Of a stretch of DNA of 16,009 nt, positions 1-13,600 are shown in pieces. The stretch is taken from the NCBI GenBank assembly GCA_040752695.1, contig JBFMGO010000128.1, positions 1 to 16,009 of the forward strand, written 5' to 3'. The notes below the pieces were generated by a model that searched no databases, was not told the DNA's origin, and saw nothing but the letters and a program-made list of their open reading frames with translations. A program made the translations under genes and the position numbers. The stretch comes from a bacterium. GTDB lineage: Bacteria > SZUA-182 > DTGQ01. Within the stretch, counting starts at the first letter, position 1. Every line of letters starts with the position of its first letter.

Positions 1-183
1 GCATTATTTTTCCTCCAATCGGTCGATATTAGGATATGCTTTATCCTTACCCGGGGTAAGAAGCTGTCTTATTGAGAAATCCGATACTCGTTACTCTTAA
101 TATTTTTAACAAACTGTAAGTATTTATTAAGGAAATGCTTTTTTATTCTTCATCATTTGAGGTTTAAGCCAAAGGGGGGCGGT

Positions 184-2850
184 ATGAGGCGCAGGACAGA
201 ACTTATTTGTATTTGCGTGCTGGCATTTCTCTGTATACTTACTCCACAGGCAAAAGGAGCACGATTAGAGGAAGGCTTAAGACCCATGTCTATGTCTGCC
301 TTCAGACAGGGTCTCGGCAATACTTCAATAACCGGTACCATCGGCTCTTTCAGGTCTGGCAGGTTTTTTTCCGGCTCCGGCACATCAGATGCTGCTTACG
401 AAAATATGGGGCAATATTTAATCGAGATTGATCCACTTACGCTCCAGATCAAGAGCCCGGATAGTATGTGGAAAATCGGTAATGGCAGAAACCTATACCC
501 TTCCGGCAATACAGCCTGGGAACTGAATGGCACCGGTATGGATACAGGTATCTCTTTTCTCCAAACCAATAGGAGGGCCCTGGGATCGCTCAGGACAGGT
601 GTTTATCATATCGACCTGGATACAGGAAGATTAACCAGGCAGTCTAATCTGAAATCCGGCTCCTACCGGGGATTTGCTCAAGATGGGAACAGTTACTATG
701 CTTCTGATGGCCAAACCATCTTTCTGCTCACCGGAGGGAGTATCGAGCTCCCTGAGGACATTGACAGCCTGGACTTGGTCCTGGGCAGTATATCGGACAG
801 CGGTAAATTCCTGCTGGCCGCCACCCAGAACTCCAGCGCCTGCAGTGTCTGGAAGATCCCTCTGGACTCAGGAGGCGACTTTGCAGGTACATACAGCCTG
901 GTCACAACGGTCAGCCATGACGAATCGAGCGTATCGACGAGCCCGGCCTGCTATGCAGGTATCTCCTATGCGCAAATTTCCTGGCCGGATGAAGGAGGCA
1001 GCCTGAAGGAGGTCCTTTACCTCAGCAGTGATTATTTCGATTCGGATGCCTCTGACGAAATAGCCATTATCGACTTCCAGACTGGCGCCATACTGAACCG
1101 CGTTCATTCTGCGGAGTCAGGGCTCTCTCTGAGTGAACCGGTCACCCTGACCAACGGCAGCATGACCGATTATCTGATTTGGGCCAATCCTCGGGGCATA
1201 CAGGGCGTTGACAGCCGTTTGTTCATCATCGGCGATTTTTGTTTTACCCTTTGTCAGCCCTCCGTAAATATCAAAAAGTATGTCTCCGTAGATGGTGGAA
1301 CAACGTATGTGGATGCTGACACCCCCTCTGGTCCTTACGCGCTGGTGGGAAGCGATCTTTATTTCAAACTGGTCGTGACCAATACCGGGCTATGGAAATT
1401 GGGCAATATCACTCTTCAAGACACCGATTTTAGCTTGAGTAGCTGTAGCATACCGGAATCACTGGCTTCCAAAGCTTCATTTACTTGCGTGATCGGGCCC
1501 ATTAAAGCCCTCGCCGGTCAGCAGACCGACACCAGCACAGTCACCGCCCAGACAAGATTCTCCGTGTTAACCGGTAAAGTTTTTTCTGATACCGACGACG
1601 CCAATTACTTCGGCGCTGATCCTGGCATTAAGATTGAGAAGACACCTGCAACCCAGACCATACTCAGCGGCGGCACTGCAACCTTCACTATCAAGGTGAC
1701 CAACATAGGTAATGTCACTTTGACGAATGTAACCTTAACTGACACACCACCGTTTTCCGGCTGTACTCCGCCGATTCCATCCCCGTTCACTCTGGCTCCT
1801 GGTACAAGCCAAACCTTCCAGTGCACGGTATCCAATGTGACTCAAAGCTTCACCAACGTCGCCACAGCCACCGGTACACCGCCAGCAGGCCCCAACGTGA
1901 GTGCAACAGCCACAGCCCAGGTGATTGTGAGCCAGCCAGGTATCAGTATTACGAAAACGCCCTCAACCCAGACCATAGTCAGCGGCGGCACCGCTACTTT
2001 CAACATCACGGTGACCAATACCGGTAATGTTCCCCTGACCAATGTGAATGTGACCGACGTGCAGGCACCTGGCTGTGCTCGTACCATTGGAACCCTGGCT
2101 GCCGGAGCGAGCTCTACCTATTCCTGCACGGTATCCGGTGTGACTCAAAGCTTCACCAACATCGCAACAGCCACCGGTACACCGCCAGCAGGCCTCAACG
2201 TGAGTGCAACAGCCACAGCCCAGGTGATTGTGAGCCAGCCGGGTATCAGTATTACGAAAACGCCTGCAACCCAGACCATAGTCAGCGGCGGCACCGCTAC
2301 TTTCAGCATCACGGTGACCAACACGGGCAATGTTCCCCTGACCAGTGTGGCAGTGGCCGATACTCTGGTCCCTGGCTGTGCTCAGACCATCGGAACCCTG
2401 GCTGTTGGAGCGAGCTCTACCTACACCTGTACGACGGCCGTTCTGACCGCAGGCTTCACCAACACCGCAACAGCCACCGGTACACCGCCGGTAGGCTCTA
2501 ACGTGAGCGCAACAGCCACGGCTGACGTGGTTGTAGAAGAACCAGCCCCGGGCATCAGTATTACGAAAGAGCCCCTAACCCAGACGGTGGCCAGTGGTGG
2601 CACGGCAACTTTTACCATCACGGTGACCAACACGGGCAATGTTCCCCTGACCAATGTGGGAGTGGCCGATACGTTCTCTCCCTGTGACAGGGTCATTGGA
2701 GACCTGGCTGTCGGAGGCGTTTCTACCTACCCCTGCACGGTATCCGACGTGACTCAAAGCTTCATCAACACAGCAATAGCCACCGGCACACCGCCAGCAG
2801 GCCCCCCTAACGTGAACGCTACAGCCACGGCTGACGTGGTTGTCCAATAG
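184..2850 (+). CDS. Secreted/surface protein, about 888 aa: signal peptide, putative beta-propeller-like N-terminal region, then about 5 Thr-rich Ig-like DUF11/DUF7507-type repeats
   Basis: ORF track 157..2850. Start moved to ATG 184, which is preceded by AAAGGGGGGCGGT and gives a signal peptide MRRRTELICICVLAFLCILTPQAKG. Repeated motif PGISITKTP..QTI.SGGTATF.ITVTNTGNVPLTNV.V.D...C...C....FTN.ATATGTP is typical of DUF11/DUF7507-like repeats. Confidence 0.85.
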   Translation: MRRRTELICICVLAFLCILTPQAKGARLEEGLRPMSMSAFRQGLGNTSITGTIGSFRSGRFFSGSGTSDAAYENMGQYLIEIDPLTLQIKSPDSMWKIGNGRNLYPSGNTAWELNGTGMDTGISFLQTNRRALGSLRTGVYHIDLDTGRLTRQSNLKSGSYRGFAQDGNSYYASDGQTIFLLTGGSIELPEDIDSLDLVLGSISDSGKFLLAATQNSSACSVWKIPLDSGGDFAGTYSLVTTVSHDESSVSTSPACYAGISYAQISWPDEGGSLKEVLYLSSDYFDSDASDEIAIIDFQTGAILNRVHSAESGLSLSEPVTLTNGSMTDYLIWANPRGIQGVDSRLFIIGDFCFTLCQPSVNIKKYVSVDGGTTYVDADTPSGPYALVGSDLYFKLVVTNTGLWKLGNITLQDTDFSLSSCSIPESLASKASFTCVIGPIKALAGQQTDTSTVTAQTRFSVLTGKVFSDTDDANYFGADPGIKIEKTPATQTILSGGTATFTIKVTNIGNVTLTNVTLTDTPPFSGCTPPIPSPFTLAPGTSQTFQCTVSNVTQSFTNVATATGTPPAGPNVSATATAQVIVSQPGISITKTPSTQTIVSGGTATFNITVTNTGNVPLTNVNVTDVQAPGCARTIGTLAAGASSTYSCTVSGVTQSFTNIATATGTPPAGLNVSATATAQVIVSQPGISITKTPATQTIVSGGTATFSITVTNTGNVPLTSVAVADTLVPGCAQTIGTLAVGASSTYTCTTAVLTAGFTNTATATGTPPVGSNVSATATADVVVEEPAPGISITKEPLTQTVASGGTATFTITVTNTGNVPLTNVGVADTFSPCDRVIGDLAVGGVSTYPCTVSDVTQSFINTAIATGTPPAGPPNVNATATADVVVQ
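1624..2847 (+). repeat. Four intragenic tandem repeat units of about 300-315 bp (about 100-105 aa), plus a divergent unit at about 1255-1620
   Basis: Unit starts GGCATTAAG/GGTATCAGT/GGTATCAGT/GGCATCAGT at 1624, 1939, 2242 and 2551 (spacings 315, 303, 309). About 200 nt from 1822 and from 2125 are nearly identical. Confidence 0.95.
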
Positions 2851-10368: not shown

Positions 10369-10407
10369 GGGATCTATTATTTATTGGGATCTATTATTTA
10401 TTGGGAT
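10369..10407. repeat. 17-bp direct tandem duplication overlapping the stop of the DUF2723 gene
   Basis: GGGATCTATTATTTATT at 10369-10385 and 10386-10402, then GGGAT. Confidence 0.9.
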
Positions 10408-11942
10408 GGTAAAACCTGATAAAGAATTCCCTGCCTTTTAATCCGAAATTTCTTTAAAATCCATTCGGGGCTGTAATCCGGATGATCGGAAGTCAAGTAG
10501 AGCTTGTGCCCCTTCATGATGTAGAGGATATTTACGGAAGTCACCTCGATGCAGGCTGGAAAATCTCCCTGGACGCTTGGCAGGCCAGCAATGAACAGCT
10601 CCTTGCCGATAGCTTCGACATTTTGAAAATAAAGCAGAGTATTGATAATAGTATAATCCGGGAAAATTACCGAGCCTTCCTCCGCCTGCTCAAATACGTG
10701 CAGTGCGTACTTTCGTGCCCCGTAATAATTTCTTTTCGAGGGATTTAAGAAATACTGATAAGAATTCCGGTAAGGTATCTCGCGCTTCACTCCTATATTT
10801 ACTTTATACTTTTCTAAAAGAGCAGGTATTTTCTGAAAAATAAAAACAGGAGAGATGGCAGAAAGAAACAGCATAACCAGGATGCTTCGGCTCCATCCCT
10901 TATTACTCATGCGGCTTACCCTGTCAATGCCAAGGCCGGTGAGCATGGCCACGAAAATATACACGGGGAGGTAAAATACATACTGGTCCGCTACGGTATA
11001 GCGAAAAGCAAAGATAAAATAAATCAGAAATATCCCGGTAAAGAGAAGACGATAGTGCCAATTTCGTTCTTTCCAGAAATTCCCTGCTCCTGGAACTACA
11101 AAAAAGATGTGAAAAACCGGAAAATTTATTCCCAAAAACAGGATGAGATTTTTAAAATTCCTCCAGCAAAAGATGTGAGTATTGAAAACGTCATTCTTCC
11201 AGGCATTACTCCCGATGAGAGCCGATTTTAAGGTTAAAAAAAAGCTCCGGGTTTGAAAATATTCTCGGGCTATCAAAACCTCGTAGGGCAAAGCTCCCAG
11301 AACGGTCAAAGAGCACAGGATGAGGAAATCCCGGCCAGTGATTTTCCTGCCGCGTAACAGGATGGCAGAGTATGAAAAGTAAACAATCATGCTTAATAGG
11401 GCCATCAGGTGGTTACTGAGGTTAAGACCATTGACCCAGAATAACCAAAACAGATATTTTTTTTGCCCGGTCTTCAAAAATCGGGTCAAAAGGATCATTT
11501 CCGCCAGAAATAAAAAGGTATACAGTGTGTAAACCTCAGCAATGACTGAATTGGTCCAAAAGGTATGGCTGACCATCAGGGTCAGACAGGCCAGGATGGC
11601 ACCTGGCCAGTTGACTTCCCACAAACGGAGCAAAAGAAAAAGGCTGCCGATCGTCAAGGCTCCGAATATCGCGGAAATAAGATTGGCAGTATAGGCCGGA
11701 TTATGGAAAGGAAGAAGGCTGAAGAGCCTCCCTATCAGGATATACAGAGGATGGCTGAGGGCTAATCCCAGAGCCCCGACATAGTCGCTCAAATAAATTC
11801 GCAGTTGAAATATCGGGCTGTCATTCCACAGTGCATCGGGAGCTAATGTGTATACATAAAACGCTAAGGAGACGAAAGTAATAAAAAAAGAGCTCTTCCA
11901 ATAGGTTTTCTTGTCAACGGTTACACCCGTACTGGGACTCAA
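10398..11942 (-). CDS. DUF2723/TMEM260-like multi-pass membrane glycosyltransferase (GT-C fold, putative protein O-glycosyltransferase)
   Basis: Y..TLAP...W.DS, HPLYILIGRLF, N.ISA..GALT, FW..S..AEVYTL and GL.LSNH motifs match the DUF2723/TMEM260 N-terminus. Many TM segments. TTG start with AAGGAGG upstream. Confidence 0.8.
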   Translation of the reverse strand: MSPSTGVTVDKKTYWKSSFFITFVSLAFYVYTLAPDALWNDSPIFQLRIYLSDYVGALGLALSHPLYILIGRLFSLLPFHNPAYTANLISAIFGALTIGSLFLLLRLWEVNWPGAILACLTLMVSHTFWTNSVIAEVYTLYTFLFLAEMILLTRFLKTGQKKYLFWLFWVNGLNLSNHLMALLSMIVYFSYSAILLRGRKITGRDFLILCSLTVLGALPYEVLIAREYFQTRSFFLTLKSALIGSNAWKNDVFNTHIFCWRNFKNLILFLGINFPVFHIFFVVPGAGNFWKERNWHYRLLFTGIFLIYFIFAFRYTVADQYVFYLPVYIFVAMLTGLGIDRVSRMSNKGWSRSILVMLFLSAISPVFIFQKIPALLEKYKVNIGVKREIPYRNSYQYFLNPSKRNYYGARKYALHVFEQAEEGSVIFPDYTIINTLLYFQNVEAIGKELFIAGLPSVQGDFPACIEVTSVNILYIMKGHKLYLTSDHPDYSPEWILKKFRIKRQGILYQVLPSQ

Positions 11943-12209: not shown

Positions 12210-12255
12210 AAAAATGATCGGGTGGGTGATTTGGGGTTATTCAAACCACCCACCC
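12210..12255 (-). terminator. Terminator-like hairpin ending the micropeptide transcript
   Basis: Minus strand GGGTGGGTGGTTTG-AATAACCC-CAAATCACCCACCC forms a 14-bp stem. The single non-Watson-Crick pair is G-U only on the minus-strand RNA. It is followed by GATCATTTTT. Confidence 0.7.
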
Positions 12256-12314
12256 AGACTACGTGAGATGATTGCTCCATTGTTTTTCCCCGTCTTTTTG
12301 AGGGTATGGTTTTC

Positions 12315-12386
12315 CTATTTAATGCCTTTGCGGGCTGACATAAGAAAGTAAAACAACGTTCCGAAAGCTCCGAAAAAGATACCCAT
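12315..12386 (-). CDS. Unannotated 23-aa hydrophobic micropeptide MGIFFGAFGTLFYFLMSARKGIK
   Basis: Extended Shine-Dalgarno AAAGGAGGTGA 5 nt before ATG, consensus sigma-54 promoter upstream and hairpin downstream. Below the ORF-track size cut-off. Confidence 0.7.
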   Translation of the reverse strand: MGIFFGAFGTLFYFLMSARKGIK

Positions 12387-12441
12387 GAAATTCACCTCCT
12401 TTACTGATAAAATTGATTAGTGACTTCAGGTATTATAAGAA

Positions 12442-12457
12442 TGCAACTGGTGTGCCA
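12442..12457 (-). promoter_or_regulatory. Sigma-54 (-24/-12) promoter
   Basis: Minus strand TGGCAC-ACCAG-TTGCA matches the consensus TGGCAC-N5-TTGCW with exact spacing. Predicted TSS is near 12431. Confidence 0.85.
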
Positions 12458-12486
12458 ATCTTTAAGATTTTAAAAGAGGCAATATT

Positions 12487-12499
12487 TTTCAAATGGTTA
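12487..12499. promoter_or_regulatory. Putative IHF binding site between the sigma-54 promoter and enhancer region
   Basis: TTTCAAATGGTTA versus WATCAANNNNTTR (one mismatch), with an adjacent AT-rich tract, at the position expected for sigma-54 promoters. Confidence 0.45.
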
Positions 12500-12733
12500 A
12501 CAATAGTAATTCCTCATGTGCTCTCTGAACGGGTCCTTTGTTTTTTGCGTTTTTGCAAGAATGATGAGATTGTTTATTGCAATATCGCCATTCTTTGTCA
12601 TTTTGCAACACCAATGAGCAAAATTGTCAGGTGCCAATCTCATCACGGGGTACGGAAACACAGAAATCGGTGTTGACACTAAAATTAAAGTCAGTAGAAG
12701 GGATTATGCACGGTGAAAGTCATTGATTCTGGG

Positions 12734-13600
12734 CTACGATGCTTTTTGAAGAAGATTCGTTTTATCTTTCTTTGAAAGAAGATTCGCCTTATCTTTCTTT
12801 GAAAGAAGTTCAAAGGTAAACATCCAGGCCATTAATCTAATCAATGGTACTTTTGTCAAGATTGAATCTAAGATATTTAAAAATGGTAACATGCCTGGGA
12901 TAAAGGCTCCAGCGATACTTGTAATGTGCCAATATCTTATTTCACCTAAATCAAAAAAATGTTTGGCAAAATGTACATCCTTTAAGCTTAAAATGTGATC
13001 TTTTTCCCATTCTGTTCTGGCGGAGGGTGTTAATATGCGGTACAGCTTCAGGATGAAGTTATAGTTCAGGGCTTCTATCGCAAGAATTCTTCCCCCGGGC
13101 GCAAGTATTCGTCTGAGTTCAGAGAGGGCATATGATAAATCCAGATGATGCAGCATACCTGAGCATATAACAGTATCTATACAATCATCCGGCAGATTCG
13201 TATCTTCAGCGTCACCTTGAAGGAAGACTAAATTAGTCAGCCCGAGCTTTTTGGCTTTTTCCTGAGCCCTTTGTATGGTATTGCGGCTTATGTCGATTCC
13301 AATGGCAATTCTGGCTCCTGCTTGAGCAGCTCTTATCGCGTTTCCTCCTTCTCCACACGCATAGTCCAGGAATACTTTATCTTTACTATGTTCAGCAATC
13401 CAATCCTCCATATATTCTGTTGATTTATTTATTGTTTCATAGAATTTGCCTTTCTCCCCCCATATGGCTGCCTGTTTTTCTGAGCTCCAATCGAAGAACT
13501 CAGATTCCTTCCGTTTTCTGTCCTCGAGGTTATTCATCCACTCTTCAGTGGGAATCTTGCTCAGTTTTTTCAATTGTGCCATCAATTCATTTGTATTCAT
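12734..13600 (-). CDS. Class I SAM-dependent methyltransferase (Methyltransf_11/UbiE-like)
   Basis: FLDYACGEG, IGIDIS, GDAEDTNLPDDCIDTVICSGMLHHL and LRRILAPGG. Start ATG 13600 preferred because AAGGAG lies upstream; it overlaps the GT4 3' end. Confidence 0.88.
   Translation of the reverse strand: MNTNELMAQLKKLSKIPTEEWMNNLEDRKRKESEFFDWSSEKQAAIWGEKGKFYETINKSTEYMEDWIAEHSKDKVFLDYACGEGGNAIRAAQAGARIAIGIDISRNTIQRAQEKAKKLGLTNLVFLQGDAEDTNLPDDCIDTVICSGMLHHLDLSYALSELRRILAPGGRILAIEALNYNFILKLYRILTPSARTEWEKDHILSLKDVHFAKHFFDLGEIRYWHITSIAGAFIPGMLPFLNILDSILTKVPLIRLMAWMFTFELLSKKDKANLLSKKDKTNLLQKAS
12749..12808. repeat. 27-bp in-frame tandem duplication at the methyltransferase C-terminus (LLSKKDKAN/LLSKKDKTN)
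   Basis: AAGAAGATTCGTTTTATCTTTCTTTGA followed by AAGAAGATTCGCCTTATCTTTCTTTGA, then AAGAAG. Confidence 0.9.

Follow-up and report, generated by a model that had tools for sequence, protein, structure and literature searches.

The E. coli gene pspG has a small product and makes use of IHF. It stands alone, and in the Psp regulon its sigma-54 activator has just one further promoter (PMC3041696, in part). The qrr genes of Vibrionaceae, with the LuxO site TTGCAWWWTGCAA, are likewise stand-alone sigma-54 units (PMC10162802, in part), and for the PEP-CTERM/PrsKR system a PrsR box ending in TTTACA is given in an excerpt of PMC1569441. Small membrane proteins that are induced by a regulator and act on kinases or transporters include MgrB (47 aa; see also PMC8404706, in excerpt), SafA, YoaI, MgtS (31 aa), MgtR (30 aa) and KdpF (29 aa), and the type I toxins include IbsC (19 aa) and TisB (excerpted text of PMC12648545).

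We compare these systems with family A, our name for a 23-residue microprotein encoded on the minus strand of the window (the whole 16,009-nt stretch of DNA analysed here) and its relatives. G000 is the window's own genome (6.05 Mb), G001 and G002 are the other two genomes of the genus, and L019, L020, L021 and L022 are metagenome contigs carrying family A. Like the MgrB/SafA/YoaI group, family A is tiny and hydrophobic, has its own regulated promoter and is predicted to act on a larger membrane protein; unlike that group, it is shorter (23 aa), has a sigma-54 enhancer with a dedicated site and shows no sequence relation to its members. With LuxO-Qrr it shares a stand-alone sigma-54 unit and repeated TTGCA...TGCAA palindromes with identical halves, but the spacer is of 4 bases in family A, whose sites fit that spacing with 0-2 mismatches and the 3-base spacing of the LuxO site only with 2-3, and the Qrr output is an sRNA whereas that of family A is a protein under codon-level selection, with no Rfam match. 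Like pspG, family A is a single-gene unit outside any operon with a small membrane product (predicted here), but it is much shorter, unrelated in sequence and without a pspA-type partner promoter, the other predicted promoter of the pair driving another microprotein instead. PEP-CTERM/PrsKR genes resemble it in being monocistronic, in combining a sigma-54 box with an upstream activator motif, in encoding a hydrophobic helix followed by basic residues and in often lying near exopolysaccharide genes (PMC1569441, as excerpted); family A, however, lacks the PEP motif, signal peptide and passenger domain, and its enhancer is different. The size, single hydrophobic helix and short basic end recall IbsC and TisB, from which family A differs in being single copy and under sigma-54 control, with a short leader without conserved SD occlusion and no antitoxin RNA seen in a consensus scan.

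The family A unit and its control region

All the elements given in the preliminary description were found on the minus strand of the window: a sigma-54 -24/-12 box (TGGCACACCAGTTGCA, 12457-12442), kept in 7/7 loci; an extended Shine-Dalgarno sequence (AAAGGAGGTGA, 12402-12392) 5 nt ahead of the ATG at 12386, with GGAGGTGA identical across the six aligned loci; the 23-codon ORF (MGIFFGAFGTLFYFLMSARKGIK then TAG, 12386-12315), with pN far below pS; and, 59 nt past the stop, a 14-bp 3' hairpin (12255-12220) that is likely a terminator or stabiliser. The hairpin passes a terminator scan, although its U-run is short and offset (ATCATTTTTC), leaving termination uncertain. From the -24/-12 spacing, transcription is predicted to start at 12431, and the RNA would extend for about 215-220 nt to the hairpin end and be monocistronic; of 200 shuffled versions, 199 fold less well than this predicted transcript (z = -3.29). 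That these signals are unlikely to coincide by chance was borne out by comparison with five locally shuffled genomes: exact sigma-54 boxes number 23 in G000 vs 2-7 in each shuffled genome, and the combination box + AGGAGGT + ATG occurs once in G000 vs none in any of the five. G000 encodes RpoN, five HU/IHF-family proteins and 41 matches to sigma-54 activator domains, 36 of them strong. Judged by its sequence, family A is a genuine, formerly uncalled gene with its own conserved sigma-54 control region, and its product is very probably a translated, functional peptide. As anticipated, gene callers miss it: none of the five distinct family A peptides was present among ~15 billion predicted proteins.

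The enhancer, the bending site and the sister gene described below did not figure in the preliminary description. Upstream of the box, on the minus strand, motif matching predicts three activator (bEBP) sites of the form TTGCA-W4-TGCAA: site 1 at 12595..12608 and site 2 at 12577..12590, with two mismatches each and together forming a 32-bp inverted repeat, and site 3 at 12545..12558, with one mismatch and its centre near -120. In 5/5 family A promoters a predicted site with 0-2 mismatches falls between -119 and -130, and the 14-bp palindrome recurs in all eight promoters examined (five of family A, three of family B), with two or three copies of at most two mismatches in seven of them and one in the eighth. 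All eight also have an IHF-like bending site 40-53 nt ahead of the sigma-54 box (12487..12499, minus strand, in the window), which we take to be such from the IHF consensus as generally known. Both kinds of site are predictions from motif match plus conservation, and on this basis TTGCA-W4-TGCAA appears to be a new enhancer motif. The locus thus has the parts of a sigma-54 unit, namely a conserved -24(GG)/-12(GC) box, upstream sites 100-200 nt away, a bending site between them, and RpoN and activators in the genome. An orthology profile over a partial locus set (15 activator loci each from G001 and G002, and 10 each from G003-G005) singled out no candidate family A activator among the 36 in G000.

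The 14-bp hairpin is retained in the five aligned loci with a native 3' end, its alignment showing one compensatory event (U-A to C-G) and a single replacement of G-U by A-U, and consensus folding of an alignment that included a non-homologous G002 row gave a covariation term of +1.28, i.e. no net covariation support. The hairpin-like stretch of G002 was rejected as non-homologous, as it matches an IS-like end at G000:C17; since the 3' end of G002 is an IS-like element, its hairpin row was discounted and one compensatory event remains. That element, resembling an IS end and 86% identical between L018:1-127 (G002:C72) and G000:C17:65998-66130, is inserted about 20 nt past the family A stop in G002, at a contig edge, and has a single truncated copy in G000; its start reads as presumably IS21-like. 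A second ATG ahead of the hairpin was also discarded, opening 10-11 codons in L019, L020 and G001 and lying in a different frame in G000. Rfam gave five weak matches for the window region, all far below cut-off.

Distribution and selection

Family A was found at seven loci, in 3 of 20 genomes of the phylum (G000, G001 and G002, one genus) and on the four metagenome contigs, and the complete unit, with activator sites, IHF-like site, box, SD and a 23-24-codon ORF, is present in all seven. The view of a stand-alone sigma-54 unit for a conserved hydrophobic micropeptide thereby held up. To our knowledge, family A has no cultured host. A DNA search of 41 genomes gave G002 as the sole strong match outside G000, and a protein search gave no strong family A match in the other 17 genomes of the phylum, eight of them at least 90% complete. 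Four weak matches in the phylum, lacking a start, SD or promoter, were rejected as family A, and two further weak ones were left out of the count. Pattern scans confirmed 4 of 177 stretches in metagenomes (L019, L020, L021 and L022), none of 34 in viral contigs, and one match in GTDB, the G001 contig itself. L021 and L022 encode the G001 peptide and were excluded from the statistics, which use the five distinct peptides.

Eighteen of the 23 residues are invariant over these five peptides, substitutions are hydrophobic-for-hydrophobic in nearly every case, and the variable DNA columns fall at codon positions 1/2/3 in the proportion 6/1/17. In all ten pairs pN (0.04-0.14) is below pS (0.30-0.81), with Fisher p from 2e-2 to 2e-7, the ten pairs not being independent. 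Selection thus acts at the protein level on family A. Neighbouring large genes have pS of 0.49-0.70 and pN of 0.15-0.20; the similar pS indicates no clear extra RNA-level constraint on family A, and the lower pN of family A indicates a peptide more constrained than those genes. That codons 6, 7 and 9 never vary in their third position hints faintly at constraint on the RNA. Within the window's intergenic region, L020 matches only 12501-12209 and L019 only 12470-12209, limits that mark promoter to hairpin as a conserved block; the alignments show the block from enhancer to hairpin conserved, by sequence comparison, while the flanks change. In-frame stops occur 10-30 codons upstream in all five distinct copies, so the ORF does not represent the remaining end of a disrupted gene. 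The relatives thus retain the ATG, frame, SD and promoter with synonymous-biased change, as the preliminary description had proposed to check; of the paralogous copies that it also proposed to look for, G000 has none beyond chance.

Sister unit and candidate regulon

A model of the family A region detected a second site in G000 (C127:13850-14054, E 7.5e-9), the match spanning enhancer, IHF site, box, SD and the first four codons. When the model was restricted to the promoter and trained on the four copies from outside G000, the window came top (E 4e-15), C127 followed (4e-4) and no other site scored below E 1; with the box omitted, the C127 match weakened to 0.21. The C127 ORF, which defines family B, encodes 37 aa with a hydrophobic N-terminus (G000:C127:13981; L054:6044-6154, plus strand), and orthologues of 38 and 39 aa occur in G001 and G002 (L055:7751-7864, minus strand, and L056:7638-7754, plus strand), all behind the same enhancer, IHF site, box and SD. 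Family B shows purifying selection (p 7e-3 to 3e-6) and is found only within the genus. An incomplete match to it in G002 (E 0.004), with no sigma-54 box in view, was set aside.

An enhancer matrix scan of G000 returned 11 sites above threshold, only those of the window and C127 being near a sigma-54 box, and both of these promoters belonged to the training set of the scan. In G001 and G002 the strict 32-bp enhancer pattern picked out the family B promoters alone, and it had no match in G003-G005. Families A and B are co-regulated by prediction from these shared sites, and their promoters possibly derive from one duplicated promoter. The peptides share a Met-x-Ile-Phe start and a Leu-x-Tyr motif, and comparison of the two family profiles was not significant (probability 1.7%). 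Downstream of family B in 3/3 genomes come a conserved protein of 111 aa, predicted to be exported or membrane-bound, and then a FeeM-like acyltransferase, the latter about 1.5 kb from family B and with its own sigma-54-like box. A long GC-rich stem without Rfam match lies 60-200 nt past the family B stop in G001 and G002 (L055, L056), not in G000.

Four microprotein families predicted to be sigma-54-driven and conserved between genomes were seen. A tentative reading, which we put forward as possible rather than probable, is that a dedicated sigma-54 activator has as its whole output two membrane microproteins (23 and 37-39 aa), as a protein-coding counterpart of LuxO-Qrr with a LuxO-like palindrome one base longer, in a lineage with a wider layer of sigma-54-driven microproteins. 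Such a candidate two-gene regulon would be composed solely of microproteins. At E 10, Pfam and NCBIfam gave no match for the five family A peptides and two weak antiporter-subunit matches for one of the three family B peptides; the ESM Atlas gave no usable match for either family; and a combined A+B profile against 1.84 billion representatives had a single match, the G001 family B peptide itself. Among the literature matches listed, none gave an account of the family A peptide or its enhancer, although supplementary small-protein catalogues could hold it. By these comparisons, family A appears to be a microprotein family that is new and restricted to one genus, and the design of its candidate sigma-54 micro-regulon is unusual. 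A signature of sigma-54 box, IHF site and SD can recover real microprotein genes from uncultured genomes.

Possible action of the peptide and alternative readings

The family A peptide has 17-18 uncharged residues followed by RKGxK, with a predicted N-out/C-in topology. On a helical wheel, the small or polar invariant residues G9, G2, Y13, G6, S17 and T10 cluster in one arc, hydrophobic positions that vary (12, 5 and 16) occupy the adjoining one, and invariant Ile, Phe, Ala and Leu lie elsewhere; the moment of residues 1-18 exceeds that of 96.6-99.8% of 5,000 shuffles (0.2-3.4% reach it). This faced pattern resembles a helix packing on a partner, from which we infer that positions 5, 12 and 16 would face lipid, and G2, G6, G9, T10, Y13 and S17 a partner. 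A crude sum on the Hessa scale is +0.2 to +0.9 kcal/mol, i.e. a short, marginally hydrophobic stretch, and the peptide could therefore lie on the membrane surface instead of crossing it.

We consider it somewhat probable that family A is a target-binding single-helix membrane regulator, most likely feeding back on signalling or transport. An enhancer-binding protein would occupy the TTGCA-W4-TGCAA sites, IHF would bend the DNA so that the activator loops to sigma-54 RNA polymerase, and the polymerase would start near 12431 to give a transcript about 220 nt long that carries a strong SD; here activator binding, IHF looping, the start and the monocistronic RNA are taken from established sigma-54 biology. 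The peptide probably enters the inner membrane as a single helix, where its invariant small-residue (Gly/Thr/Tyr/Ser) face would bind and adjust a larger membrane protein. As target we would guess a transporter or sensor kinase that sits in the membrane and belongs to the same signalling circuit, with the peptide as feedback or connector in the manner of MgrB, SafA and YoaI, and family A would act alongside the co-regulated family B peptide. Of the functions first proposed, small membrane regulator stays the best reading, given a length below 50 aa, protein-level selection and one hydrophobic segment; no sequence match to a named small-membrane-protein family was found, and no co-travelling partner gene among the family A loci compared. 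If the peptide does modulate a sensor or transporter, small-protein feedback control would extend to sigma-54 circuits.

In the window, family A is flanked by a methyltransferase/GT4 block on one side and a TMEM260-like GT-C gene on the other. The latter (10398-11942, minus strand), for a TMEM260-like protein O-mannosyltransferase, has a lower GC than the block below and is likely a later insertion. The usual downstream neighbour of family A is a spermidine-synthase-like gene heading an AmmeMemoRadiSam block, the exception being L020, and this block is a boundary where variable DNA accumulates. Elsewhere in the window, the methyltransferase gene has at its 3' end a near-tandem duplication of 24 nt (12750-12810, minus strand), which yields a repeated tail LLSKKDK, and 157-2850 (plus strand) encodes an 897-aa secreted protein with four DUF7507/DUF11-type repeats.

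The position of family A after glycan-cluster genes in G000, G001 and G002 would suit an accessory subunit or regulator of surface-glycan enzymes, as initially suggested, but the adjacent upstream gene differs (methyltransferase in G000, O-antigen-ligase-like in G001 and L021, an unclassified membrane protein in G002), L019 and L020 have no glycan neighbours, and the GT-C gene is missing from the position in G001, L019, L021 and L022 and adjoins family A only in G000, which makes this role quite unlikely. In L019 the upstream gene is a histidine kinase (one of five distinct contexts; the G000 orthologue is on another contig), and L020 has an Ig-domain protein upstream and a convergent ABC binding protein downstream. 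Short hydrophobic peptides can be pheromone precursors, and family B is found about 1.5 kb upstream of the FeeM-like acyltransferase in all three genomes; a precursor of an exported or modified signal peptide is nonetheless very improbable for family A, with which no modifying enzyme, protease or exporter co-travels and whose conservation spans the full length without a leader/core split, the FeeM-like gene having moreover its own box. The earlier idea of a modified-peptide substrate was dropped accordingly, as no conserved modifying enzyme adjoins family A and neither the co-conserved enzymes nor the leader/core layout of RiPP precursors was seen. A hydrophobic helix with a basic cluster is also the shape of sorting tails, PEP-CTERM genes are often monocistronic under sigma-54 (excerpt of PMC1569441) and G000 has five PEP-CTERM matches; against a free-standing sorting tail (an exosortase or rhombosortase decoy) or a remnant of a longer gene are the absence of a PEP motif and of a longer protein, the upstream in-frame stops, 0 matches among 6,425 long-ORF tails of G000 and an enhancer unlike the TTTACA-ending box, and we hold this reading highly improbable. 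An attenuator leader peptide was rejected as well: Phe5 and Phe12 vary, and in L020 the next gene is on the opposite strand, with no fixed operon.

Two further readings have little in their favour. The peptide might act alone, self-associating via its glycine face and perturbing or depolarising the membrane like a type I toxin or amphipathic stress effector, silenced by its need for sigma-54 activation and not by antisense RNA. Its size, hydrophobicity and basic tail match type I toxins (PMC12648545, in part), its strong facial moment fits lone membrane action and sigma-54 control provides a tight off-state (PMC1569441, in part); but no convergent promoter for an antitoxin was seen, the two sigma-70-like sites (vs 2.2 by chance, in a consensus scan that misses many) both pointing away, 17-59% of shuffled leaders fold as well as that of family A in occluding the SD, the gene is single copy per genome and absent from viral contigs, and the peptide has no charged or strongly polar pore face, so that we regard lone action as unlikely. 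A base-pairing RNA, as the additional or main function, would resemble Qrr sRNAs under a similar sigma-54 enhancer: the stand-alone sigma-54 unit, strong hairpin and sister copy are Qrr-like, the enhancer is similar to the site that LuxO uses at qrr genes (PMC10162802, in part), and hardly any change is seen in a 14-nt block over codons 6-10. This is very unlikely, however, given codon-patterned sequence change, no Rfam match in the five related loci, no complement of the 14-nt block elsewhere in G000 at one mismatch and the lack of net covariation support.

Other sigma-54-linked small ORFs and circuits were seen in these genomes. Family C, a hydrophobic ORF of 23 aa preceded by a sigma-54 box and SD (G000:C68:1800, minus strand, L060; G002:C19:2662, plus strand, L057), comprises a pair 59% identical (pN 0.19, pS 0.49, p 0.035) and in G000 directly follows a kinase-activator pair. 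Family E, a 56-aa hydrophobic-then-amphipathic ORF with a sigma-54-like box and SD (G000:C11:73370, plus strand, L059; G003:C35, L058:6969, minus strand), is conserved across two genera with a strong synonymous bias (p 6e-10) and adjoins a B12-type radical SAM gene. A 35-aa ORF with one hydrophobic segment follows a sigma-54 box near an activator gene (G000:C74:10637, plus strand; L061:5638). At L028, L029, L035, L038, L049, L050, L053 and G000:C222:1842, sigma-54 boxes precede a stretch that is G-rich and SD-like, after which no start codon comes at the usual spacing; these loci are candidate sigma-54 sRNAs or cases of non-ATG initiation, and L038/L053 and L028/L029 appear to be homologous. 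Finally, a sigma-54 activator without an N-terminal sensing domain (G000:C4:5027-6340) lies directly past a ClpB-like and two small heat-shock genes, as it does in G001, which suggests a sigma-54 heat-shock circuit.
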